From a virus (lineage: Duplodnaviria; Caudoviricetes), in the IMG/VR virus record IMGVR_UViG_3300025887_000028, positions 1-53,660 of that record: DNA of 53,660 nucleotides, one strand, 5' to 3'. Positions 635-53,586 of this stretch are shown here, one piece after another. The notes beneath the pieces were generated by a model. The model saw nothing but the letters and a program-made list of their open reading frames with translations. It had not been told where the DNA came from and did not search any database. Made by a program: the position numbers and the translations under genes. Numbering within the stretch: position 1 is the stretch's first letter; each line of letters opens with the position of its first letter.

Positions 635-3600
635 TTATTGTACCATTACTAGAAGTTTATCTATGTATGTTTGATCTGTGACTGAGAAGATATAAGCTTT
701 ACCTGAATCACCACCACCAGCATCATCTTCAAAGTAAGCACCTACAATCGCATAGTTGCCAGATATAGAAGCTGAGTACCCAAAACGATCACTCGCACTC
801 GTGCTATAAGCGGTAGGATTATCCAATGTGTGAACCAATGCACCAGTCGTAACATTGAAGATATAAACTTTACCAGAATTAAAACCACCAGCATCATCTT
901 CTCTATAAGCACCTACAATCGCATAATTGCCTGACATAGCAACTGTCGAAGCAAAATTATCACTAGAACTCGTACTATAAGCGGTAGGATTATCTAAAGT
1001 GTGAACTAGAGCGCCAGTCGTAACATTGAAGATATAAGCTTTACCTGAATCACCACCACCTGCATCATCTTCACCAATAGCACCAACAATTGCATAATTA
1101 CCTGATACGGCAACTGGCAAGCCAAAACGATCACTCAAACTCGCACTATAAGCATTAGGATTGTCTAATGTATGAACTAAAGCACTAGTCGTGACATTGT
1201 AGATATAAGCTTTACCAGATTGAAAATCACCAGCATCATCTTCATCAAAAGCACCTACAATCGCATAGTTGCCTGATATTGCAACTGACAAGCCAAAATT
1301 ATCACCAGAACTCGTACTATAAGCATTCGGGTTATCCAATGTGTGAACTAAAGCGCCAGTCGTGACATTGTAGATGTAAGCTTTACCTGAAGTAAGACCA
1401 CCAGCATCATCTTCTCTATAAGCACCTACAATCGCATAGTTATCTGATATAGCAACTGAGATGCCAAAATTATCATTCGCACTCGTACTATAAGCATTTG
1501 GATTATCTATCGTATGAACCAATGCGCCGGTTGTGACATTGAAAATATAAGCTTTACCAGAATCACTGCCACCTGCATCATCTTCAAAGTGAGCACCTAC
1601 AATCGCATAATTGCCTGATATTGCAACTGAGTAGCCAAAGAAATCATTCCCACTCGTGCTATAAGCATTTGGATTGTCAAGAGTATGAACTAAAGCGCCA
1701 GTCGTGACATTGTAGATATAAACTTTACCAGAATTAAAACCACCAGCATCACCTTCTTGATAAGCGCCAGCAATCGCATAGTTATCTGATATTGCAACTG
1801 ACAAGCCAAAGAAATCACTCACACTCGTACTATAAGCATTAGGATTATCAAGAGTACGGGCTAAAGCACCTCCGAACAAAGCAGGTTCTAGCAAAGATTG
1901 CAATGCATCAGTGCTTGGGTTTATACTGCTTGTGCTAGAAAAGTTTATTTTATCTATTTGACTGTATTTGGTAACATCGTCTACTGTGAAGATATAAGCT
2001 TTACTAGAAGTTGTACCACCAGCATCATCTTCGGAGTAAGCAGCAACAATCGCATAGTTACCTGATATTGCAACTGTCCAAGCAAAACTATCACCAGCAC
2101 TCGTACTATAAGCATTAGGATTGTCCAATGTGTGGACTAAAGCACCTGTTGTCACGTCAAAGATATAAGCTTTACCAGAACCAGAGCCACCAGCATCATC
2201 TTCACTATTAGCACCAACAATCGCATAATTACCTGATATAGCAACCGTGTCGCCAAAACTATCACCAGCACTCGTACTATAAGCATTAGGATTGTCCAAT
2301 GTGTGGACTAAAGCACCTGTTGTCACGTCAAAGATATAAGCTTTACTAGAAGAAGTACCACCGGCATCATCTTCATATCTAGCGCCTACAATCGCATAGT
2401 TACCTGATATGGAAACTGAGATACTAAATTGATCACCAGCACTCGTACCATAAGCATTTGGATTATCTAAAGTGTGAACTAGAGCGCCATTCGTGACATT
2501 ATAGATATAAGCTTTACCAGAATCATTACCACCAGTATCATCTTCTTGATCGGCACCAACAATCGCATAGTTACCTGATATAGCAACTGAGTAGCCAAAG
2601 ATATCGCTCGCACTCGTACTATAAGCATTTGGATTGTCTAATGTATGAACTAGAGCACCAGTCGTGACATTGTAGATATAAGCTTTACCAGAAAAAGTAC
2701 CACCAGCATCAGCTTCAGAATAAGCACCTACAATCGCATAGTTGCCTGATATGGCAACTGAGTCGCCAAAACGATCAGTCTGACTCGTACTATAAGCATT
2801 AGGATTGTCAAGAGTATGAACTAAAGCACCAGTCGTGACATTGAAAATATAAGCTTTACCAGAATTTAAACCACCTGCATCATCTTCGTTATACGCACCA
2901 ACAATCGCATAGTTTCCTGACATAGCAACTGAGTAGCCAAAATAATCAGCCTGACTCGTACTATAAGCGGTAGGATTGTCTAATGTATGAAGCAAAGCGC
3001 CAGTCGTGACATTGAAGATATAAGCTTTACCAGAACCAGAGCCACCAGCAGCATCTTCTAAATAAGCACCTACAATCGCATAGTTGCCTGATATTGCAAC
3101 CTCCCAGCCAAAGAGATCGTTCAAACTCGTACTATAAACATTCGGGTTATCTAATGTGTGAACTAAAGCACCTGCAGAGTATTCAATTTCAGTCTCGGTG
3201 TCATAGTACACTTCTCTACCAATGTATGATAATTCTTCACCAGCGAAGATGTAAGCTTTACCAGATTGAATACCACCAGCATCATCTTCTTGATAAGCAC
3301 CTATAATCGCATAATTGCCTGATATTGCAACTGAGTGGCCAAAGAGATCACCAGAACTCGTACCATAAGCATTTGGATTGTCTAATGTATGAACTAAAGA
3401 ACCAGTCGTGACATTGAAGATGTAAGCTTTACCAGAATTAAAACCACCAGCGTCATCTTCAAGATAAGCACCTACAATCGCATAATTACCAGATATAGAA
3501 ACTGAGTACCCAAAATAATCACCAGCACTCGTACCATAAGCATTTGGATTGTCAAGAGTGTGAAGCAAAGCGCCAGTTGTCACATTGAAGATATAAGCTT

Positions 3601-4561
3601 TACCAGAACCAGCGCCACCACCAGCATCATCTTCACCATAAGCACCTACAATCGCATAGTTGTCTGATATGGAAACTGAGGTGCCAAAATCATCAACAGC
3701 ACTCGTACTATAAGCATTAGGATTATCCAATGTGTGAAGCAAAGCGCCAGTCGTGACATTGAAGATATAAGCTTTACCAGAAGTAGTACCACCAGCATCA
3801 TCTTCAAGATAAGTGCCTACAATTGCATAATTACCGGATATCGCAACTGAGTCGCCAAAACGATCACTCAAACTCGTGCTATAAGCATTAGGATTGTCTA
3901 AAGTGTGGACTAATGCACCAGTCCCGACATTGAAAATATAAGCTTTACCAGAATTTAAACCACTAGCATCATCTTCAAAGTAAGCACCAACAATCGCATA
4001 GTTGTCTGATATAGCAACTGACCAGCCAAAACGATCAATATTACTCGTACTATAAGCATTTGGATTGTCAAGAGTATGAACTAAAGCGCCTGTCGTGACA
4101 TTGAAGATATAAGCTTTACCAGAAGTGTTACCACCGGCATCACCTTCAGCATAAGCAGCAACAATCGCATAATTGCCAGATATAGCAACTGAGTTGCCAA
4201 AATAATCACTCGCACTCGTACTATAAGCATTAGGATTGTCTAAAGTATGAACTAGAGCGCCAGTCGTGACATTGTAGATATAAACTTTACCAGAACCAGT
4301 GCCACCAGCATCATCTTCTTCATAAGCACCTACAATCGCATAGTTTCCTGATACAGCAACTGCAGAGCCGAAAAGATCATCTGCACTCGTGCTATAAGCA
4401 TTAGGATTGTCTAACACAGTGGTAAGAGTAGTATTTCTGAAATCTGGTTCTAAGAAGTCTGCTGACGACTGGGCTGTACCATCAGCGAATCCGACGCTTT
4501 CGACATTCACGAAATTACGACTGTTATCGATAACAGGCGTACCTTTTACTTTAATCGCCAT
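635..4561 (-). CDS. FG-GAP repeat protein with three 7-bladed beta-propellers; putative virion adhesin/fibre protein
   Basis: 21 repeats of ~57 aa (LDNPNAYSTSxxDxFGxSVAISGNYAIVGAYxEDDAGGxxSGKAYIFNVTTGALVHT) in 3 blocks of 7 separated by linkers; late promoter upstream. Confidence 0.85.
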   Translation of the reverse strand: MAIKVKGTPVIDNSRNFVNVESVGFADGTAQSSADFLEPDFRNTTLTTVLDNPNAYSTSADDLFGSAVAVSGNYAIVGAYEEDDAGGTGSGKVYIYNVTTGALVHTLDNPNAYSTSASDYFGNSVAISGNYAIVAAYAEGDAGGNTSGKAYIFNVTTGALVHTLDNPNAYSTSNIDRFGWSVAISDNYAIVGAYFEDDASGLNSGKAYIFNVGTGALVHTLDNPNAYSTSLSDRFGDSVAISGNYAIVGTYLEDDAGGTTSGKAYIFNVTTGALLHTLDNPNAYSTSAVDDFGTSVSISDNYAIVGAYGEDDAGGGAGSGKAYIFNVTTGALLHTLDNPNAYGTSAGDYFGYSVSISGNYAIVGAYLEDDAGGFNSGKAYIFNVTTGSLVHTLDNPNAYGTSSGDLFGHSVAISGNYAIIGAYQEDDAGGIQSGKAYIFAGEELSYIGREVYYDTETEIEYSAGALVHTLDNPNVYSTSLNDLFGWEVAISGNYAIVGAYLEDAAGGSGSGKAYIFNVTTGALLHTLDNPTAYSTSQADYFGYSVAMSGNYAIVGAYNEDDAGGLNSGKAYIFNVTTGALVHTLDNPNAYSTSQTDRFGDSVAISGNYAIVGAYSEADAGGTFSGKAYIYNVTTGALVHTLDNPNAYSTSASDIFGYSVAISGNYAIVGADQEDDTGGNDSGKAYIYNVTNGALVHTLDNPNAYGTSAGDQFSISVSISGNYAIVGARYEDDAGGTSSSKAYIFDVTTGALVHTLDNPNAYSTSAGDSFGDTVAISGNYAIVGANSEDDAGGSGSGKAYIFDVTTGALVHTLDNPNAYSTSAGDSFAWTVAISGNYAIVAAYSEDDAGGTTSSKAYIFTVDDVTKYSQIDKINFSSTSSINPSTDALQSLLEPALFGGALARTLDNPNAYSTSVSDFFGLSVAISDNYAIAGAYQEGDAGGFNSGKVYIYNVTTGALVHTLDNPNAYSTSGNDFFGYSVAISGNYAIVGAHFEDDAGGSDSGKAYIFNVTTGALVHTIDNPNAYSTSANDNFGISVAISDNYAIVGAYREDDAGGLTSGKAYIYNVTTGALVHTLDNPNAYSTSSGDNFGLSVAISGNYAIVGAFDEDDAGDFQSGKAYIYNVTTSALVHTLDNPNAYSASLSDRFGLPVAVSGNYAIVGAIGEDDAGGGDSGKAYIFNVTTGALVHTLDNPTAYSTSSSDNFASTVAMSGNYAIVGAYREDDAGGFNSGKVYIFNVTTGALVHTLDNPTAYSTSASDRFGYSASISGNYAIVGAYFEDDAGGGDSGKAYIFSVTDQTYIDKLLVMVQ
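690..4415. repeat. Coding tandem repeat, ~171-bp unit, 21 copies in 3 blocks (about 3 more copies in 1..495)
   Basis: Recurrent ataagctttaccaga / acaatcgcata / ctcgtactataagcatt at a 171-bp period. Confidence 0.9.
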
Positions 4562-4596: not shown

Positions 4597-4604
4597 TATT
4601 TATA
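4597..4604 (-). promoter_or_regulatory. T4-type late promoter TATAAATA for the propeller genes
   Basis: TATTTATA on + strand, ~36 nt upstream of ATG 4561. Confidence 0.8.
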
Positions 4605-4625: not shown

Positions 4626-4633
4626 TATAAATA
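4626..4633 (+). promoter_or_regulatory. T4-type late promoter TATAAATA (gp13)
   Basis: Exact consensus upstream of gp13. Confidence 0.85.
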
Positions 4634-4672: not shown

Positions 4673-5416
4673 ATGGCACAACCTACTGATAGACATTCCT
4701 TCAAAGAATGGTGTCTTCGTAAACTGGGTAAACCAGTCATCGAAATCAATGTAGACCCCGATCAGGTTGATGATCGTGTTGATGAAGCGCTATCGTACTA
4801 TTGGGACTATCATTTTGATGGTGCAGAAAAGATGTTCCTAAAGCATCAAATCACTGCAGAAGACAAAGAGAATGGTTATATCACAGTACCTGAAAACATC
4901 ATAGGCGTGATCAACATTTTCAATGTATCATCAACTTCGCTATCAACATCAAATATCTTTAGCGCACAGTATCAATTCGCATTGAACAATCTACACGACA
5001 TTGCAAGCTATGACACTGTTCACTTTTATATGGGTATGCAACACATTCAGTTTCTTGAAGAGATTTTGACTGGTGCTCAACCGATTCGATATAACCGTCA
5101 TGTGAACAAATTGTATATTGATACTGATTGGAGCAATTTGACAGAGGGTCAATATATTGTTGCAGAGTGTTATCAGATTATCGACCCAGAAGTGTACAGT
5201 GATGTTTGGAAAGATCGCTGGCTGCAAAATTATGCAACTGCGAAAATCAAATATCAATGGGGTTCGAACTTAACTAAGTTTGAAGGTATGCAGCTTCCCG
5301 GTGGCGTAACATTCAACGGTCAGCAAATTCTATCTGATTCACAGGCAGAGATAGAAAAACTGGAAGAAGATATGGTAAACTCATATTCACTACCTGTCCA
5401 TGATATGATAGGCTAG
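4673..5416 (+). CDS. gp13: Neck protein gp13
   Basis: WCLRKLGKPVIEINVD, YQWGSNLTKFEGMQLPGGVTFNG motifs; synteny. Confidence 0.95.
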   Translation: MAQPTDRHSFKEWCLRKLGKPVIEINVDPDQVDDRVDEALSYYWDYHFDGAEKMFLKHQITAEDKENGYITVPENIIGVINIFNVSSTSLSTSNIFSAQYQFALNNLHDIASYDTVHFYMGMQHIQFLEEILTGAQPIRYNRHVNKLYIDTDWSNLTEGQYIVAECYQIIDPEVYSDVWKDRWLQNYATAKIKYQWGSNLTKFEGMQLPGGVTFNGQQILSDSQAEIEKLEEDMVNSYSLPVHDMIG

Positions 5417-23949: not shown

Positions 23950-24933
23950 ATGAAATCCCTAAAACAAATCATCAAGGAGACGGTCGCTGAACCAAAATCT
24001 CCTGACGAAAAGCGCTTCAAAGAGCTACACACTAAGAACGTGGATAAGAAAGATTATCCTGTCGATAGTGGTAAATCTGAGAGAGTAACAAAGAAAAAAC
24101 CTCGTAAGGCTGACTATACTGATGGGTCTGATGAAAAGGCTTATGACACTTCATACGAAAGCGTAAGTTTTGAGGATCTTCTTGTTATCGACGAAGATAT
24201 GCTAGAAGAAGCTCTTGAAGACCTTTCTGAAGAGCAACTTGACGAGATCATCAAAACTGCGGTTAAGGCTGTTGGTATTGGAACTTCTGGTGCAAAAGCT
24301 GTTAAGAGTGTTGCGGGTAAAGTCAAGAATAGATTCTCGGCTAGTGGTCGTGCAGATGCGCTAAAGCGCAGGACTGATGCAATTAGAAAAAGAAAAGAAG
24401 ATCAGAACAAGCTTAAAACTGCACGTACAGATTACAATAAAGCTCGTAAAGAAGAAGTAGAACTTGACGAGAACGCATGGGAAGAGATTCCCATGATGGA
24501 AAGACAGTTGAAATTCATCGCATATGCTTCTGAAGAAATGATCGACTATCTTGTAGAGTGCGATACGGATTGTGTGGATCCAGAAGAATGGTTCCAAAAC
24601 AAACTTGCACATATTCATGGTCAGATGAGAACACTTCACGCTTATGTCGAGGGTGATCGTCGCATGGGTGACATGGGTGGCATGTACGAAGAAACTGACC
24701 TTACCGAAAATACTATAAAAGACCTTGAGAAGATTGTCAAGACAAAAAGTCGTGGCGAAATTAAGTTCAAAGACGGCGATTCAATAAAAGTTGATATGCA
24801 GACTGCAAATGTTCTCGTAAAAGTCTATGATGCATTAAACGATCCTAACAAGAAAAAGTTTGAAGATGCTTTAGGTAAAAATGAAACCATGTTCATGAAG
24901 ATGGTAGATTTTGCATGGAGCAAAGTAAAATAA
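23950..24933 (+). CDS. Putative prohead core/internal head protein
   Basis: N-terminal MKSLKQIIKE, many (L/I)xE sites, charged, located between gp67-like and gp21. Confidence 0.6.
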   Translation: MKSLKQIIKETVAEPKSPDEKRFKELHTKNVDKKDYPVDSGKSERVTKKKPRKADYTDGSDEKAYDTSYESVSFEDLLVIDEDMLEEALEDLSEEQLDEIIKTAVKAVGIGTSGAKAVKSVAGKVKNRFSASGRADALKRRTDAIRKRKEDQNKLKTARTDYNKARKEEVELDENAWEEIPMMERQLKFIAYASEEMIDYLVECDTDCVDPEEWFQNKLAHIHGQMRTLHAYVEGDRRMGDMGGMYEETDLTENTIKDLEKIVKTKSRGEIKFKDGDSIKVDMQTANVLVKVYDALNDPNKKKFEDALGKNETMFMKMVDFAWSKVK

Positions 24934-25184
24934 TGCCAAGTATCATCAAACTCAAAGGAACCGAAACGGGTGTTACAAGCGCAACAACGCTCAATAACGC
25001 CCAATTGATTCGCGTATATGCGACAGCAAATTCGTCTATCACCATCACTAACGTTGTAGCTAATACTGCAATAGGTTCTTTCACAGTTCCAGGTGGGCGT
25101 GTCGAATACGTTGAAAAGAGCGCTAATGATACAATCGAGTCTGATGTTGAAGTTCTTTGCACACCAATTTCGTATAACACATAA
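24933..25184 (+). CDS. Small hypothetical beta-rich protein (83 aa)
   Basis: ATG overlapping the upstream stop (TAATG); MPSIIKLKGTE...VEKSANDTI. Confidence 0.7.
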   Translation: MPSIIKLKGTETGVTSATTLNNAQLIRVYATANSSITITNVVANTAIGSFTVPGGRVEYVEKSANDTIESDVEVLCTPISYNT

Positions 25185-31114: not shown

Positions 31115-31143
31115 TTGACATCACATATATTTTGGTATACAAT
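31115..31143 (+). promoter_or_regulatory. sigma70 promoter for gp55
   Basis: TTGACA-N17-TACAAT. Confidence 0.8.
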
Positions 31144-31162
31144 GAAAAGAAAAGGATTTGAA

Positions 31163-31687
31163 ATGGCTAAAGCTAAAAGAAATTATGTAAACAACGCTCA
31201 CTTTTTCGATGCTATGGTTGAGTACCGCAAGCTATGCGAAGATGCTGAGAACGGTGGAGACGAACATCCACGAATACCGAACTACATAGGCGAGTGTCTA
31301 TATCAGATAGCGAATCGTCTTGCAACAAAACCTAACTTCTCTGGATATTCATATAAAGAAGAGATGATTAGTGATGGATTAGAAAATGCGATCATGGCAG
31401 TCAAGAACTTTGATCCAGATAAGTCTAAGAATCCATTCGCATACTTCACACAAGTCATCTACTTTGCGTTTCTCAGACGAATCGAAAAAGAGAAGAAGCA
31501 GTTGTACATCAAACACAAGGTTGTTGAAAACTCTGTAATTCATGATACAGCAGTCGATAGATCAGGTGGTGGCGAGAGTAAAGATGGTAGTGCTGCATAC
31601 ATTGACTTGGATAATGATTACATGAGTAACTTTGTTGAAGGATATGAAGCCACTATGCAGAAGAAACGAGATAATGCGAAAAAATGA
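31163..31687 (+). CDS. gp55: Late sigma factor gp55
   Basis: NYVNN, IPNYIGEC, NFSGYSYKEEMISDG, NPFAYFTQ; ATG 31163 with agga SD. Confidence 0.96.
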   Translation: MAKAKRNYVNNAHFFDAMVEYRKLCEDAENGGDEHPRIPNYIGECLYQIANRLATKPNFSGYSYKEEMISDGLENAIMAVKNFDPDKSKNPFAYFTQVIYFAFLRRIEKEKKQLYIKHKVVENSVIHDTAVDRSGGGESKDGSAAYIDLDNDYMSNFVEGYEATMQKKRDNAKK

Positions 31688-41237: not shown

Positions 41238-41888
41238 ATGAAATTTAGTGACGATACAGTCTCTATCTTGAAGAATTTCTCTGGCATTAACCAGGGTCTA
41301 CTATTCAAGCCAGGTAACACTCTGACAACTATTTCCCCGCAACAAACAGTAATGGCAAGCGCCACTATCTCTGAAACTCTTGATGGACGCGCAGCAGTGT
41401 ACGATCTTTCGCGTTTTCTGTCAACAGTATCACTATTCAATGATAGCGTTGATGTAAAGTTTGGATCTGAGAAGTTTGAGATTCGAGATGATCGCCGTAA
41501 GGTATCATATGTCTACGCGGCTGAAAACATGATTGTTACTCCACCAGAAAAGCAAATGAAATTGCCTAATGCTGATGTTACAGTTGATATCAAATGGATT
41601 GACATTGAAAGTGCTATCAGAGGCGCAGGTGTTCTACAGGTGAGTGATATTGCATTCACAGGCGCCAATGGTAAAATTCTATTGCGGGCTGTTGACTCTA
41701 AAAATTCGACATCAGATACATATGATATCGAAATTTCTGACTATGATGGAGAAGACTTTGAGATGACGATCAAAGTTGATAACCTTAAACTATTGCCAGC
41801 AGATTATACTGTTTCGCTTTCAAAGGCTGGCATCTCACATTTCAAATCGACCAATGTTCAATATTGGATCGCAGTTCAAGCTAACTAA
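41238..41888 (+). CDS. gp45: Sliding clamp gp45
   Basis: ILKNFSGIN, YDLSRFL, NLKLLPADY, YWIA. Confidence 0.95.
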   Translation: MKFSDDTVSILKNFSGINQGLLFKPGNTLTTISPQQTVMASATISETLDGRAAVYDLSRFLSTVSLFNDSVDVKFGSEKFEIRDDRRKVSYVYAAENMIVTPPEKQMKLPNADVTVDIKWIDIESAIRGAGVLQVSDIAFTGANGKILLRAVDSKNSTSDTYDIEISDYDGEDFEMTIKVDNLKLLPADYTVSLSKAGISHFKSTNVQYWIAVQAN

Positions 41889-48459: not shown

Positions 48460-49545
48460 ATGTCACTATTAGAAAAACTTATCAAATCGAGTACCATTAA
48501 ATTGACAGCGCCAATTATGGACTCAAAGGTCTTTGGCAAAAAAGACATGGCACCAACATCTGTTCCAATGGTAAACGTAGCGTTATCGGGTCGCGTTGAC
48601 GGTGGCTTGGTGCCTGGCTTGCTTATGCTTGCTGGTCCAAGCAAACACTTCAAATCGGCGTTTGCTTTGCTTATGGCTGCAGCCTATCTGAAAAAGTATG
48701 ATGATGCTATTATTCTGTTTTACGATTCAGAATTTGGTACTCCACAATCATACTTCGAATCTTTTGGCATTGACATGAACCGTGTTATTCACACACCAAT
48801 CAAAGATGTCGAGGAATTGAAGTTTGATATCATGAAGCAACTTGACAACATTGAAAAGAAAGATAACGTTCTTATTCTTATCGATTCTATTGGTAACCTC
48901 GCTTCAAAGAAAGAAGTGGACGATGCTATGGACGGCAAATCAGTTGCTGATATGTCTCGTGCAAAACAGATGAAGTCTCTGTTCCGTATGGTAACACCTC
49001 ACTTGAACCTCAAAGACATTCCTTTGATTGCGGTCAACCATACGTATAAAGAGATCGGTTTGTATCCCAAAGATATCGTGTCTGGCGGTACCGGAGCGTA
49101 CTATTCCGCAGATGCCATTTGGATCATTGGTCGTCAGCAAGAGAAAGATGGTACTGAGATTGCAGGCTATCACTTCGTAATTAATATTGAGAAGTCTCGA
49201 CATGTGCGCGAGAAGTCTAAGATTCCGATCACTGTTACGTTCGACGGTGGCATTGCAAAGTGGTCAGGATTACTTGATGTTGCAGAGAAGGGTGGCTATA
49301 TTCGTAAACCTAAAGTTGGTTGGTACGAGGCTCTTGATCCCGAAACTGGTGAAGTTCTAACTGAGAAGTTGCTACGAGCAAAAGAAATTCTTTCAAGTGG
49401 AGATTTCTGGAAAATGATGTTTGAGAAAACTGATCTTGCATCTTACATCAAAAAGCGTTATACTGTAGGAACAGGCTCACTCTTTACAGAAGAAGTGAGT
49501 GATTCGCCTTTGCCTGCTGATATAGAAGAAAACGATAATCAATAA
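48460..49545 (+). CDS. uvsX: RecA-like recombinase UvsX
   Basis: AGPSKHFKS, YDSEFG, DSIGNLASKKE, SGGTG. Confidence 0.96.
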   Translation: MSLLEKLIKSSTIKLTAPIMDSKVFGKKDMAPTSVPMVNVALSGRVDGGLVPGLLMLAGPSKHFKSAFALLMAAAYLKKYDDAIILFYDSEFGTPQSYFESFGIDMNRVIHTPIKDVEELKFDIMKQLDNIEKKDNVLILIDSIGNLASKKEVDDAMDGKSVADMSRAKQMKSLFRMVTPHLNLKDIPLIAVNHTYKEIGLYPKDIVSGGTGAYYSADAIWIIGRQQEKDGTEIAGYHFVINIEKSRHVREKSKIPITVTFDGGIAKWSGLLDVAEKGGYIRKPKVGWYEALDPETGEVLTEKLLRAKEILSSGDFWKMMFEKTDLASYIKKRYTVGTGSLFTEEVSDSPLPADIEENDNQ

Positions 49546-49559
49546 ATCGGAGCATTACG

Positions 49560-50993
49560 TTGATTGAAAGAACTATTCTTGCAAATCTAATGTCGAATGA
49601 CAATTTCACGCGGAAAACGATACCGTTCATTGAACCAGAATATTTCGATGATTATGAAGAACGGCATCTTTTCAATGAAATTAGATCGTACATTGACAAA
49701 TACAATGGGCTTCCTACCAAGGAAGCCCTACACATTACGCTGGGTGAAAATGATAGTTTAACAGAAGATCAGTTTACGAAGGTAAGTAGAATTGTTGACG
49801 AGCTTGAATATGACCCAGCAACTGATATTGACTGGCTTGTAGATAAAGCGGAAAAGTTCTGTCAAGATAAAGCAATATACAATGCCGTCAAGAAATCAAT
49901 TCTTATACTTGACGACCGTGATAAACAATATGACAAAGGCTCTATTCCAGAGTTGTTGTCAGATGCGCTGGGCGTTTCTTTCGACAGCAATATTGGTCAC
50001 GACTTTCTTGATAACTCTCAAGAGCGTTACGACTTTTATCACGCGAAAGAGGATAAGATTGCGTTTGATCTTGAATACTTTAATGAAATCACCAAGGGCG
50101 GTCTATCACGCAAAGCTTTGAGTGTTGCCTTGGCAGGCACAGGCGTTGGTAAAACTCTATTCATGACACATTGTGCATCTGCAAATCTGATGGCAGGCAA
50201 TAACGTGCTATATATTACTATGGAAATGGCAGAAGAGCGTATTGCCGAGCGCATTGATGCTAACCTATTGGACGTTTCACTTGATGATTTACGTATGCTT
50301 ACGCGTGAAGCGTATGATTCGCGAATCGCTCGTGTCAAAACGCGTACAACAGGTAAGTTGATTGTTAAAGAGTATCCTACAGCATCTGCTGGTTCAGCCC
50401 ACTTTAGACATTTGTTGAATGAGCTTAGACTAAAGAAGAACTTCAAACCAGATGTTATCTATATCGACTATCTAAATATCTGTATGAGTTCACGAGTTAA
50501 ATATGGCGCAAACGTGAATTCATATACATTGGTGAAAGCTATCGCAGAAGAATTGCGTGGTCTGGCAGTCGAATTTAATGTGCCTGTTATGACTGCGACA
50601 CAGACAACTCGCTCAGGTTTCTCTAATTCAGATGTTGGTCTAGAAGATACTTCAGAATCTTTTGGTCTACCAGCGACTGCAGACTTCATGTTTGCACTTA
50701 TCTCTACAGAGGACCTCGAAGAGCTTGGGCAACTTATGGTAAAGCAGTTGAAAAATCGTTGGGGTGATGTTGGTGCACCTAAACGATTTGTTGTAGGTAT
50801 CGATAGGTCTAAAATGCGACTCTTCGATGCAGAAGAGTCTGCTCAGCAAGGTATTATGGGTTCACCATCAGGCAATAAAAAGAACAATGATGTTGCACTT
50901 ATGGATGATACAGCATTCGGCGGACGTCTAGAAGACGAAATGCGATCTGGTAGAGGTAAACATAAAAAGAGAAGTTTTGAGGGCGTAGTCTAA
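49560..50993 (+). CDS. gp41: Replicative helicase gp41
   Basis: AGTGVGKT, KEYPT, IDYLNI, TSESFGLPATAD, KQLKNR; TTG start. Confidence 0.97.
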   Translation: MIERTILANLMSNDNFTRKTIPFIEPEYFDDYEERHLFNEIRSYIDKYNGLPTKEALHITLGENDSLTEDQFTKVSRIVDELEYDPATDIDWLVDKAEKFCQDKAIYNAVKKSILILDDRDKQYDKGSIPELLSDALGVSFDSNIGHDFLDNSQERYDFYHAKEDKIAFDLEYFNEITKGGLSRKALSVALAGTGVGKTLFMTHCASANLMAGNNVLYITMEMAEERIAERIDANLLDVSLDDLRMLTREAYDSRIARVKTRTTGKLIVKEYPTASAGSAHFRHLLNELRLKKNFKPDVIYIDYLNICMSSRVKYGANVNSYTLVKAIAEELRGLAVEFNVPVMTATQTTRSGFSNSDVGLEDTSESFGLPATADFMFALISTEDLEELGQLMVKQLKNRWGDVGAPKRFVVGIDRSKMRLFDAEESAQQGIMGSPSGNKKNNDVALMDDTAFGGRLEDEMRSGRGKHKKRSFEGVV

Positions 50994-51172
50994 TGTATAC
51001 CGTAAAGGAAAATAATGATACCAGTAAATGGGAAATCTACGAGATCACTACAGATCAGCGTGTACAGAGTTGTAGAACCAAAGACGAAGCAAGGCGATTA
51101 ACGAGATTGTTAAACCTAGGATCAGGCTTCAACGGTTTTACGCCAAGGTTCATCACGGTCGAGTACATTTGA
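50993..51172 (+). CDS. Small hypothetical protein (59 aa)
   Basis: Not in ORF track: MYTVKE...LNLGSGFNGFTPRF; TAATG overlap with gp41. Confidence 0.7.
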   Translation: MYTVKENNDTSKWEIYEITTDQRVQSCRTKDEARRLTRLLNLGSGFNGFTPRFITVEYI

Positions 51173-51181
51173 GACATCCAC

Positions 51182-51224
51182 AAACAAAAAGAAAGGTCGT
51201 CCAATAGAACGACCTTTCTTTAAA
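51182..51224. terminator. Bidirectional rho-independent terminator
   Basis: aagaaaggtcgt-ccaataga-acgacctttctt, 12-bp perfect stem with A run before and T run after. Confidence 0.85.
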
Positions 51225-51360
51225 TTTGATCAATGCGCGATGTCGAGAGGAACCCCACCTGCACTAAACGTGCCGCCCCGACTATTCCTTTCGTGATGTT
51301 GAATTTATCTCTGATCACACTTGCCTCTTATGCTATGCATAGCTCCACGCACCCATGACG
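51185..51360 (-). ncRNA. Candidate structured late non-coding RNA (~175 nt)
   Basis: Minus-strand TATAAATA at 51362-51369, terminator at 51189-51220, several complementary segments, no ORF longer than a few codons. Confidence 0.6.
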
Positions 51361-51361
51361 T

Positions 51362-51369
51362 TATTTATA
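51362..51369 (-). promoter_or_regulatory. Late promoter TATAAATA on the minus strand
   Basis: TATTTATA on + strand in an intergenic region. Confidence 0.7.
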
Positions 51370-51391
51370 CAAATAGAAACCTGGAAACCAC

Positions 51392-51420
51392 TTGACAATG
51401 AACTTTTTTTCAATTATATT
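51392..51420 (+). promoter_or_regulatory. sigma70 promoter
   Basis: TTGACA-N17-TATATT. Confidence 0.7.
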
Positions 51421-51437
51421 GATTTTGTAGCAAAGAG

Positions 51438-51845
51438 GTGATAATGCTTTACGAAATCGAAGGTATAAGTTCGCATTTTGATGTTGAAGAACTTGATAGC
51501 GTTGTGTTTCATGCTATCAAGTTCCTTTCTATGCCTGAGAATACGCTGCTCACCATTCGCTTCTCTGATGATATCGAGTCAGCTGGATATTGTGATGAAG
51601 TTGACTTGGACGAAGGTATCGTTGAAATTGAACTAAATAATAGTCTTGATTTAAACGAAACTATTATGACAATTTTTCATGAGATGGTGCATTGTCGTCA
51701 AATACTTGAAGGACGACTTGTGCAAGGTAATCCTAGTACGTGGGATGGTATAGAGTATACATGCGACTACATGAATTTACCTTGGGAAATAGAGGCATAT
51801 GCACTAGAAGGAAGAATGTATGAAGAATATCGAGAATCTAGATAA
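51438..51845 (+). CDS. Putative zincin-like metallopeptidase
   Basis: TIFHEMVHCRQ (HExxH) and PWEIEAY; start may be ATG 51444. Confidence 0.75.
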   Translation: MIMLYEIEGISSHFDVEELDSVVFHAIKFLSMPENTLLTIRFSDDIESAGYCDEVDLDEGIVEIELNNSLDLNETIMTIFHEMVHCRQILEGRLVQGNPSTWDGIEYTCDYMNLPWEIEAYALEGRMYEEYRESR

Positions 51846-52122
51846 AGAATTTATGGACGTCACCGATAGAGATATTGATATGTTGGTACCATGGTTTTTG
51901 ATGGCATCATATGCATATGACGTTCAAGAAGAACCAATTCTGAGTGATGCCACATATGATAAAATGCTTAGGCGAATGATTGATAACTGGGACGATATCA
52001 ACCATCCGAACAAACATTATATACTAAAAGATGATCTTGAAACTGGAAAGTTTCGATGTGAATACCCCAAACGCGTCAAAGACGCTATTAATACTTTGAA
52101 GGACTCTTGCTATGAAAAATAA
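51820..52122 (+). CDS. Small protein resembling NAD-dependent DNA ligase subdomain Ia
   Basis: ASYAYDVQEEPILSDATYDKM vs LigA YY....P..SD..YD. Confidence 0.55.
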   Translation: MKNIENLDKEFMDVTDRDIDMLVPWFLMASYAYDVQEEPILSDATYDKMLRRMIDNWDDINHPNKHYILKDDLETGKFRCEYPKRVKDAINTLKDSCYEK

Positions 52123-52276
52123 AACACTCCGAGATGAAATCGTTGATGCACTTGACGAAGCTCGTATACTGGAATGTGCGATGGAACGATTTGATAGAGA
52201 TCGTATGCTATTTGTTGCGCAGAGATTAAGTGGCGCGCCGTACTCATTTATTACAGAAGTATATTCAAAACTTTAA
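52112..52276 (+). CDS. Small hypothetical protein (54 aa)
   Basis: Not in ORF track: MKNKTLRDEIVDALDEARILECAM...; agga SD; fills the gap. Confidence 0.55.
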   Translation: MKNKTLRDEIVDALDEARILECAMERFDRDRMLFVAQRLSGAPYSFITEVYSKL

Positions 52277-52277
52277 A

Positions 52278-52607
52278 ATGCCAAAAGCAAAGCAGAGTAA
52301 ACAAGAGAGAGCAGCGCAAGCCAAGAAAGAACACGAAGCATGGCTTGTTTCAATGGGATACAAAGGCGGTAAGTCGCTAAGAGGTAAACATGGTCGTAGA
52401 ATTGGGGTTCATTCTGTTCCTAACTTGCGTGATGGCATACACGAAATGCCAGACACGTCTGATGCTATCTGTAGTAACGGTAGTAAACGAGAGTCCGCAA
52501 AGTATACAGGTACACTCGTCAAAGGTATTGCCACGATGCACAAATCGAACGCAGTTCCTATAACAAGCGGTGAACAAGCAATTGAGATATCGAAAATGAG
52601 GCGCTGA
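52278..52607 (+). CDS. Basic hypothetical protein
   Basis: ATG 52278; YTGTLVKGIATMHKSNAVP...ISKMRR. Confidence 0.7.
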   Translation: MPKAKQSKQERAAQAKKEHEAWLVSMGYKGGKSLRGKHGRRIGVHSVPNLRDGIHEMPDTSDAICSNGSKRESAKYTGTLVKGIATMHKSNAVPITSGEQAIEISKMRR

Positions 52608-52621
52608 TGCGTCTCTTTTTT
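52598..52621 (+). terminator. Rho-independent terminator
   Basis: gaggcgc-tgat-gcgtctc-tttttt. Confidence 0.75.
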
Positions 52622-52625
52622 GTTA

Positions 52626-52633
52626 TATAAATA
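52626..52633 (+). promoter_or_regulatory. Late promoter TATAAATA
   Basis: Exact consensus after the terminator. Confidence 0.8.
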
Positions 52634-52656
52634 GACGTATGACAAAGGAGAAAAAC

Positions 52657-53586
52657 ATGGCAATGACTTTTAGAGAATTCATGTTGACGGAAAGCACGTT
52701 GACAGAATTAAAAGACTCTATCTCTACAATGGGATATAGAGAAATCAAAGACTTGTCTTCACGTCGTTTTAAGGTTCTTGTTCCTGCTAAAGACCGTATG
52801 AAAGTCGCAGAAAAGATTGTTGATAAACTCGGCGGCAAACTGGCAACGACAGGCACCGATGCAGGCAAACCTGTTATAGAATTTGTCGGAGGTTTGAAAG
52901 TATATATCAAACCTAAACCAGGCAGCGGCGTAGGTGGAACTGCAAAAGAAGATGCACAGCTTTCTTCACTGCAAAAGCAGATACAAGCCGAGCTAGAAAA
53001 AACAAACTTAATGGAGTTGCCAATCATGATTGGTAACAGATACTATAACGTAGCAGGCGCCGCGACAACTTCAGGAACTCCAAAATCTGATTTTCACCTT
53101 CTAAATCTAAAAGGTGAAGAGGTTGTCTGGATATCACATAAAGATGGTTCTAAAGCAAAAGACTTTCAACAATGGGGCGGCATGAGCCCAAGGTCGGAGC
53201 CAGAGATTGCGAATCATATAGAGACGAAAAAGTTTGTCGAAGATGTGAAAGACTTGTTCGGCGACACTATGCCGAGAGCTACGACAGTTAGTAGAAAAGT
53301 TAAAGACGCCAAGCTGGCTGGTATGTCAATTTACGGTAACAAATTTGGCTCTGCGTTAGGTAGACAGAACGTTACACTGTTGTTGCAAGGTCCCGTAAAA
53401 TTAGTTAAAAAGAAAGACCATTATGTATTGACTTCTAACCACACATCTGTTAATGGTGATGTGATGACAGGAGGATATGCGCCAGTATTCATGGCGATAT
53501 ATAAAGGTGATAGAAGTAACTTTGGTGTCAAGGGCGCACGTTTTGCCATACAACCAGCGAATTCCAGAAAGTCAAGAGGCGTATAA
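52657..53586 (+). CDS. Late protein with a putative PD-(D/E)xK nuclease-like domain and capsid-targeting-like N-terminus
   Basis: MTFREFMLTE; KED, TPKSDF......WISHKDG....FQQWGG; aggag SD. Confidence 0.55.
   Translation: MAMTFREFMLTESTLTELKDSISTMGYREIKDLSSRRFKVLVPAKDRMKVAEKIVDKLGGKLATTGTDAGKPVIEFVGGLKVYIKPKPGSGVGGTAKEDAQLSSLQKQIQAELEKTNLMELPIMIGNRYYNVAGAATTSGTPKSDFHLLNLKGEEVVWISHKDGSKAKDFQQWGGMSPRSEPEIANHIETKKFVEDVKDLFGDTMPRATTVSRKVKDAKLAGMSIYGNKFGSALGRQNVTLLLQGPVKLVKKKDHYVLTSNHTSVNGDVMTGGYAPVFMAIYKGDRSNFGVKGARFAIQPANSRKSRGV

Follow-up and report, generated by a model that had tools for sequence, protein, structure and literature searches.

What does the stretch of DNA directly behind the gp41 helicase gene of this phage encode, and is its product an RNA? 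The window, by which we mean the whole stretch of 53,660 nucleotides analysed here, is a 53.7-kb fragment of an uncultured T4-like phage whose IMG/VR record is estimated to be ~30% complete, and the DNA runs containing it are labelled freshwater metagenomes. PHROG matches in the window cover a typical T4-type complement (terminase, sheath, tube, portal, prohead protease, scaffold and major head protein) as well as UvsY, a UvsW-like helicase, gp46/47, the clamp loader, RegA, MazG, Hsp20 and DNA polymerase, and its gp41 is only 55–61% identical to that of the nearest cultured phages, which include Melnitz, cyanophages, the pelagiphage HTVC008M, DLP6 and phiM12. Known roles have been assigned to only a few phage non-coding RNAs, and the late phase of infection by lytic T4-type phages is generally regarded as almost wholly protein-driven.

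The gap between the ORF that directly follows gp41 (orf59) and the ORF starting at 51438 is 265 nt long. According to the sequence-only reading, the minus strand of this gap encodes a standalone structured RNA, and a dedicated late promoter and a terminator bracket a relatively GC-rich region without a real ORF. Comparative evidence from sequence strongly supports the core of this proposal, and on that evidence the finding is real; promoter, terminator and the lack of a conserved ORF all recur across a family of related elements, and the unit keeps its integrity in both orientations in which it occurs. The GC enrichment proved mild, at 0.44–0.45 in 140-nt windows on the element against 0.34–0.45 around it, with the GC skew reversed. 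Coordinates are collected in Table 1. The RNA body between promoter and terminator is ~135 nt and the whole RNA would be about 170 nt.

Table 1. Features of the RNA element and of the genes referred to in the text (positions in the window)
Feature	Position	Strand	Basis or remark
gp55-type late sigma factor (gp55-like ORF)	31115–31687		PHROG match
gp45 clamp (gp45-like ORF)	41238–41888		PHROG match
UvsX	48460–49545	+
gp41 helicase	49560–50993	+
orf59, 59-aa ORF directly 3′ of gp41	50993–51172	+
T4-type late promoter TATAAATA	51369–51362	−	Read from sequence
P1, closing helix UGCGUG/CGCGCA	51351–51346 with 51239–51234	−	RNAalifold
P2, hairpin GCUA-UGCA-UAGC (12-nt palindrome)	51343–51332	−	RNAalifold
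J2/3, junction strand AAGAGGCAAG	51320–51329	−	GGCA 51325–51322 invariant
P3, hairpin with stem GUGAU/AUCAC	51293–51318 (51318–51314 with 51297–51293)	−	RNAalifold
J3/4, junction strand AAAGGAAUA	51283–51291	−	GGAA 51288–51285 invariant
P4, 5′ strand GUCGGG	51277–51282	−	Pairs with CUCGAC 51242–51247; in the sequence-only reading GUCGGGG 51282–51276 with UCUCGAC 51248–51242, confirmed in the sequence
P5, small variable hairpin GCAC-GUUUA-GUGC	51261–51273	−	RNAalifold
P6, 3-bp stem AGG/CCU capped by heptaloop UGGGGUU (51257–51251)	51248–51260	−	RNAalifold
A/U-rich single-stranded linker, P1 to terminator	51222–51233	−	Read from sequence
Intrinsic terminator: 15-pair stem, 4-nt loop, U run	51186–51221 (stem 51221–51188)	−
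Longest frame in the element, 32-aa GTG frame	51318–51220	−	Others shorter; none conserved

Distribution and orientation of the family

We started from 80 viral-contig loci of IMG/VR that encode gp41 relatives, and compared the gap at each of them with that of the window. The non-coding stretch was 70–77% identical between loci whose gp41 proteins were only 64–71% identical. A covariance model made from nine sequences found the element at 18 of the 80 gp41-anchored loci in addition to the window, and a second covariance model with a second gp41-anchored sample found it at 21 of 80 loci. A three-block sequence pattern matched at least 119 viral contigs, and all 80 loci among the pattern matches listed were accepted by the covariance model. 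The pooled set comprised 72 distinct sequences; we use the term unbiased for 35 distinct members that were found through gp41 alone, without using the RNA sequence. The element occurred once per contig in five large contigs, one of them 99% complete. The family is common to many uncultured freshwater T4-like phages, and it is abundant in freshwater viral metagenomes.

Searches further afield returned no members. With covariance models R1 and R2, the element was absent from 10 cultured T4-like relatives (Melnitz-1, HTVC008M, DLP6, S-CAM7, AG-345-L05, S-SRM01, DSL-LC03, DSL-LC02, P-RSM3 and phiM12); the best match there (E 0.04, 17 bits) was coding-like, lacked the loop and was rejected. BLAST of the window intergenic region and of two other family members against 50,697 phage records gave no match, and R2 applied to 62 further gp41 loci gave no more distant members. 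The strict three-block pattern, searched in one genome per species across 185,579 prokaryote species, found no true copy; its sole match lay inside GC-rich coding DNA, was accepted by neither R1 nor R2, and was set aside as chance.

The unit adjoins uvsX-gp41(-orf59) in 67 of the 72 distinct loci, the other five loci being cut short. Some loci, the window among them, have the unit antisense to gp41, others have it in the gp41 sense, and the orientation follows phylogeny. In a quick gp41 tree, which is not the product of a careful search, the antisense type formed one clade with an SH-aLRT of 99 (nine antisense, three truncated and one without the RNA), the sense type fell in another clade together with some RNA-free rows, and a clade of 44 rows had none. 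Since the unit is antisense in one gp41 clade and sense in another, promoter, RNA and terminator must have moved together as one package. The inversion carried promoter, body and terminator together and all were kept, which argues that the RNA itself is the product.

Among the genes examined at the gp41 loci, no neighbour strictly co-occurs with the RNA. Homologues of orf59 were found at 20 of the 80 loci (13 of the 18 RNA-bearing loci and 7 RNA-free loci), and orf59, orf135, orf100, orf125 and orf315 gave no informative match in Pfam, PHROG, NCBIfam or PDB. As a separate observation, locus L011, the closest gp41 relative of the RNA-bearing L012, has no RNA in ~1 kb downstream and carries a coding region there (4850–5250), reflecting either recent loss or displacement.

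Covarying fold and fixed unpaired bases

RNAalifold, run on nine antisense-type sequences, returned helices P1–P5 and a sixth helix, P6, with compensatory changes in 15 of the 29 pairs. The first five are the main pairings that the sequence-only reading had drawn from the window sequence; their coordinates check, and the alignment of relatives yielded all of them independently. The predicted fold is a four-way junction, in which P1 closes the structure, P2 and P3 are hairpins and the fourth arm consists of P4 stacked on P6, with P5 or an A-rich bulge on the 5′ side of the P4–P6 arm. Across 58 distinct sequences, 94.7% of the cells pair, compared with 30–57% when the partners are slid by 1–3 columns; 24 of the 29 pairs show changes on both sides, and 0 of 500 shuffles reached any of these measures. 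Because the model shaped that alignment, and a pattern fixing part of P6 had served to pick the sequences in it, we recounted P4 and P6 on a plain MAFFT alignment of 19 gp41-anchored sequences made without a model, where all nine pairs were compensatory and 99.4% of the cells paired. Moreover, in a mutual-information scan blind to structure, the top 14 column pairs were all predicted base pairs, and the scan indicated no tertiary pairs beyond the six helices.

Each helix varies freely in sequence and keeps pairing. All six pairs of P1 are compensatory in the 58 distinct sequences, double changes occur in all five pairs of both P2 (91.4% of cells paired) and P3 (84.1% of cells paired, with a loop of widely variable length), and P4 has six of six compensatory pairs with 100% of cells paired in the unbiased alignment A1. 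All three pairs of P6 show double changes, its stem occurring in eight variants such as CGG/CCG, CCG/CGG, CAC/GUG and UGG/CCA. P5 is the variable part; in the sense-oriented group a 4–6 nt A-rich bulge stands in its place, and 39–47 of the 58 rows are gapped here. Against this background three unpaired elements stay fixed. GGCA in J2/3 has a column entropy of 0 and is present in 35/35 unbiased distinct members; GGAA in J3/4, also with an entropy of 0, is invariant in the 19-sequence MAFFT alignment and in the same 35 members; and the heptaloop UGGGGUU together with its closing G–C pair is invariant in all 35. Six covarying helices, three invariant elements and a package that survived inversion together amount to exceptionally clean comparative support and indicate that selection acts on the RNA itself.

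Thermodynamic stability of the single sequence carries little of this signal. The 135-nt body folds at −32.6 kcal/mol compared with −31.9 kcal/mol for dinucleotide shuffles (z = −0.25, with 80 of 200 shuffles as good); z fell to −3.28 only when the terminator was included, and was −1.09 for the opposite strand.

Two alternative pairings, which the earlier reading had taken as a hint of a pseudoknot or switch, did not survive the comparison. The CC of GUUCC covaries with the bases just 5′ of the loop, with which it forms the 3-bp P6. AGGAAU/GUUCCU covaried no more than shuffles did, since the CC follows its P6 partner and the GGAA does not vary. AGAGG/CCUCU fails by inspection, since its 3′ partner (the 3′ strand of P6/P4) changes while AGAGG stays. 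The comparison lends these proposed pseudoknot or switch pairings no support.

The fold also bears on whether the element works as RNA at all. A function in the DNA or in the act of transcription could be imagined, as a boundary or insulator with a bidirectional terminator between the replication module and the one after it, or as an origin or packaging signal, and the constant position at the end of the uvsX-gp41-orf59 module and a terminator that can work in both directions would suit it. However, G–U cells number 114 and A–C cells 6, and this excess means that selection for pairing acts on the promoter-side strand rather than on its complement or on duplex DNA. Covariation runs through six helices, the invariant bases are unpaired, and a terminator alone would not need a body of ~125 nt, so that we consider a DNA-level role highly improbable.

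A coding role is harder still to credit. A small late protein gene would use AAGAGG as its ribosome-binding site, followed at a plausible spacing by the GTG-initiated 32-aa frame that ends just before the terminator, and weak tblastn similarity to two relatives can be cited for it. However, the best of the frames anchored on the conserved core is open in only 28 of 72 members in the sense direction and in 37 of 72 in the antisense direction. The spacings between conserved blocks are out of register, with all three classes modulo 3 represented, the longest ORF has a median length of 24 aa, and the AAGAGG block is not kept in three members. We regard this explanation as the least plausible of those considered.

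Promoter, terminator and downstream genes

In established T4 biology, a motif of the TATAAATA type together with gp55 and gp45 makes a late promoter. TATAAATA occurs 17 times in the window, where 3.05 copies are expected, and 11 of the 17 copies sit 21–57 nt upstream of ORF starts, including those of the sheath, scaffold and major head protein. The element has the arrangement of a T4-type late unit, with TATAAATA at about −10 and both a gp55-like and a gp45-like ORF in the window. Among the 71 distinct members with enough upstream sequence, the exact motif precedes the RNA in 58, and the other 13 have ATAAATA or CTAAATA in its place; 57 of the 58 exact copies end −2 to 9 nt before the start of the covariance-model match. 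From the promoter motif and the presence of gp55 and gp45 in the phage, we infer that the RNA would be made late.

The terminator is kept as well. Of the 69 distinct members whose downstream sequence is long enough, 62 have T4 or longer after a hairpin of −8 kcal/mol or lower; in the remaining seven, a T run accompanies a weaker hairpin. Between the end of the covariance-model match, which extends ~11 nt beyond P1, and the terminator T run lie 14–42 nt in all but one of 62 members, the exception having 67 nt. Because the terminator is flanked by an A run as well as a T run, it can also end the convergent uvsX-gp41-orf59 transcript. With its own promoter, its own intrinsic terminator and no conserved ORF, the element has the makings of a stand-alone sRNA gene. 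Metatranscriptome contigs from four freshwater runs, mapped on 48500–53500, cover parts of uvsX, parts of gp41 and parts of 52045–53395 and leave 51172–52006 uncovered, and assembled contigs at their depth of 2–6 cannot show a small RNA either way.

The main rival to a free-standing RNA gene is an aptamer for a small molecule or ion, either as an orphan riboswitch with the terminator as its expression platform or as a free 'sponge' that would bind a metabolite or signalling nucleotide late in infection. Aptamers typically have such an architecture, in which P1 closes a junction of several helices and unpaired purines are invariant; the terminator follows directly, and in the sense-oriented group genes in the same direction come next. 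However, the element does not lie in the 5′ leader of a gene in the window or in the eight antisense loci of the first sample, where it converges on orf59 and gp41 and has no downstream gene to regulate; we rejected a cis riboswitch there. Visual inspection of nine sense-oriented examples showed that a separate TATAAATA-like promoter lies between the terminator and the next gene in eight, and a sigma-70-like promoter in the ninth (L035). Moreover, the linker before the terminator has no constant length, no pairing that could act as an anti-terminator is evident, and Rfam gave no riboswitch match. The convergent arrangement contradicts a cis riboswitch and does not contradict a free sponge, and for the aptamer explanation taken as a whole we allow a small chance.

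Relation to known RNAs and proposed role

Rfam 15 at gathering score gave 0 matches in the whole window, and at E up to 10 on 50900–51600 it gave only weak matches centred on the terminator. The best Rfam match, the GibS sRNA (RF04182), scored 35.3 bits (E 0.0045) against a gathering score of 115; GibS is of similar length, but the alignment spans the A/U-rich linker and the terminator hairpin and is essentially a match to the terminator, and it was rejected. Weak plus-strand matches to STnc320 and patAB also fall on the terminator hairpin. At E up to 1, ten diverse member loci gave three unrelated weak matches, none of them on the element. ARAGORN predicted 0 tRNA or tmRNA genes in the window, the Rfam searches returned no tRNA-clan match, and junction strands of 8–10 nt do not fit a cloverleaf. 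Here too the sequence-only reading, which had found the RNA not tRNA-shaped and had assigned it to no known family, agrees with the outcome.

Catalysis offers another use for such a fold. A self-cleaving or otherwise catalytic RNA might well show a compact conserved junction with invariant unpaired nucleotides, as this one does. However, no Rfam 15 ribozyme matched the window (E up to 10) or ten diverse members (E up to 1), and the context suggests no need for processing, since the element is single copy and lies in no repeat or rolling-circle setting. We think a catalytic function very unlikely. The sequence-only reading had named a ribozyme as one of several roles, along with a decoy, an antitoxin mimic and an assembly RNA, all of which are guesses.

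Full-text literature searches brought up no account of this RNA. A screen of IMG/VR intergenic regions by Fremin, Bhatt and Kyrpides 2023 (PMC10690425) reports 8495 unnamed candidates, 1241 of them with a terminator; as described in the main text, these come from the same IMG/VR source and are conserved, covarying intergenic structures of unknown function. Motifs next to a helicase or a late promoter are not mentioned in that main text, and the family may already stand, anonymously, among the candidates listed in the supplements. On comparative grounds the family appears to be a new, well-supported family of phage structured RNA, possibly already present as an unnamed catalogue entry.

PMC7547250 describes StxS, a short regulatory RNA of lambdoid and Stx phages whose transcription runs from the late promoter PR′ to tR′. 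On that description the likeness lies in a small phage RNA, a late promoter and an intrinsic terminator a short way downstream, and the difference is that StxS is the leader of a late operon whose terminator is overridden by antitermination. The window RNA is a unit of its own: separate promoters come after it, in the window's clade it is not directed at any gene, and it resembles StxS neither in sequence nor in structure. The two also belong to different types of phage and use different types of promoter. StxS-type RNA is presumably equivalent to the lambda '6S' RNA. The species 1 and 2 RNAs of T4 (rnaD and rnaC) are small, stable and non-coding and have no established function; their genes belong to the tRNA gene cluster, and processing of an early or middle precursor yields them. 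Compared with them, the window RNA has its own late promoter and terminator and lies beside gp41, in a window without tRNA genes.

The best explanation, which we hold with moderate confidence, is that the element is a stand-alone gene for a non-coding RNA of ~170 nt that is made late, acts in trans and shows its loop and junction to a partner. Host RNA polymerase with the phage late sigma factor would start ~6 nt after TATAAATA, which, by analogy with T4, would be at ~51356, and transcription would stop at the intrinsic terminator. Acting in trans late in infection, the RNA would use the junction and the P4–P6 arm as a rigid scaffold that presents the heptaloop and the purine-rich junction strands to one conserved partner. 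This partner could be a protein, titrated or scaffolded by the RNA, or an RNA whose C-rich sequence pairs with the loop. Together, the A/U-rich linker and the terminator resemble the 3′ module of bacterial trans-acting sRNAs, and the invariant loop is a candidate seed for a base-pairing sRNA. On the gene-sense strand of the window the loop complement AACCCCA occurs only within the element's own antisense, and in 39 RNA-bearing loci it is sporadic on the gene-sense strand, with no conserved site, which counts against a base-pairing role within the phage. In a separate count, the complement pattern has seven matches on both strands of the window, the element included, against 2.14 expected; the heptamer itself, TGGGGTT, rather than its complement, lies on the plus strand at 5258, 15508, 30347, 43143, 46057 and 52403. 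These extra copies are probably a codon-usage effect.

A more specific possibility, which we rate as unlikely, is a role as free aptamer or decoy: the phage would make large amounts of the RNA late in infection and thereby sequester a host factor that could abort infection. The target may be a nucleotide used in immune signalling, a protein acting as nuclease or sensor, or tRNAs, bound at their C-rich 3′ ends. In T-box RNAs the antiterminator bulge, within a 7-nt unpaired element, pairs through UGGN with the 3′ end of a tRNA. The window RNA likewise has a conserved 7-nt unpaired element that starts with UGG and lies beside a G–C-rich helix, a likeness that we take as a lead only; if the RNA is a decoy, the UGG-initial loop might capture the C-rich 3′ ends of particular tRNAs in the T-box manner. 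However, the window RNA has neither Stem I nor specifier, is not the leader of an aminoacyl-tRNA synthetase gene, and presents a hairpin loop rather than a bulge; its context is a phage replication module, and no T-box model matched the window or ten members. A further tRNA lead was treated as chance, or at most as a lead. The 11-mer GGUGGGGUUCC, the commonest form of P6 plus loop (51248–51260, minus strand), equals the first 11 nt of E. coli tRNA-Tyr as its 5′ sequence is printed in PMC13416341, with no further likeness and no tRNA-model match.

To return to the preferred trans-acting RNA, the family offers a well-defined new fold for structural, ligand or partner screening, and its presence marks a clade of uncultured T4-like phages. 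Should a host factor prove to be the partner, the RNA would represent a new way for phages to control cells late in infection, and if it does serve as a decoy, an RNA-only device for counter-defence or host takeover in T4-like phages.

Several minor observations concern the surrounding genes. At 51392–51420 on the plus strand lies a near-consensus promoter of the sigma-70 type (TTGACA, 17 nt, TATATT; 11/12) aimed at the ORF starting at 51438; it stands back-to-back with the late promoter, so that the gap has divergent early-type and late-type promoters, and TTGACA is visible at the equivalent position in several relatives. Within that 135-aa ORF (51438–51845), a 14-pair inverted repeat with an 8-nt loop at 51489–51524 (plus strand) was flagged as terminator-like. 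Further along, TATAAATA at 52626–52633 (plus strand) lies upstream of a 315-aa ORF (phrog_13937, function unknown), after which a DUF6267-type gene starts (to 53660). In several sense-oriented relatives, an unknown protein of 270–315 aa and then a DUF6267 and cytidylyltransferase-like fusion come directly after the RNA (L022 4795–7343 and L036 4815–7243 carry such pairs), and in the window three early-type genes are inserted between the RNA and the pair. The DUF6267-cytidylyltransferase gene follows the RNA in some sense-oriented loci and is absent there in the commonest subgroup.

The plus strand carries 47 of the 49 ORFs of at least 80 aa in the window. On the minus strand lie a short 95-aa frame (24893–25180) and a 1308-aa protein (635–4561) with several short repeat-type PHROG matches; the latter has its own TATAAATA at 4597–4604 (minus strand), 36 nt upstream and divergent from a plus-strand late promoter at 4626–4633. 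As for orf59, which has no Pfam or PHROG family, a homologue is also found at L203 4386–4582, and in the Pelagibacter phage HTVC008M an unannotated one seems to be encoded behind the helicase gene, in what is annotated as a 231-nt 'gap'.
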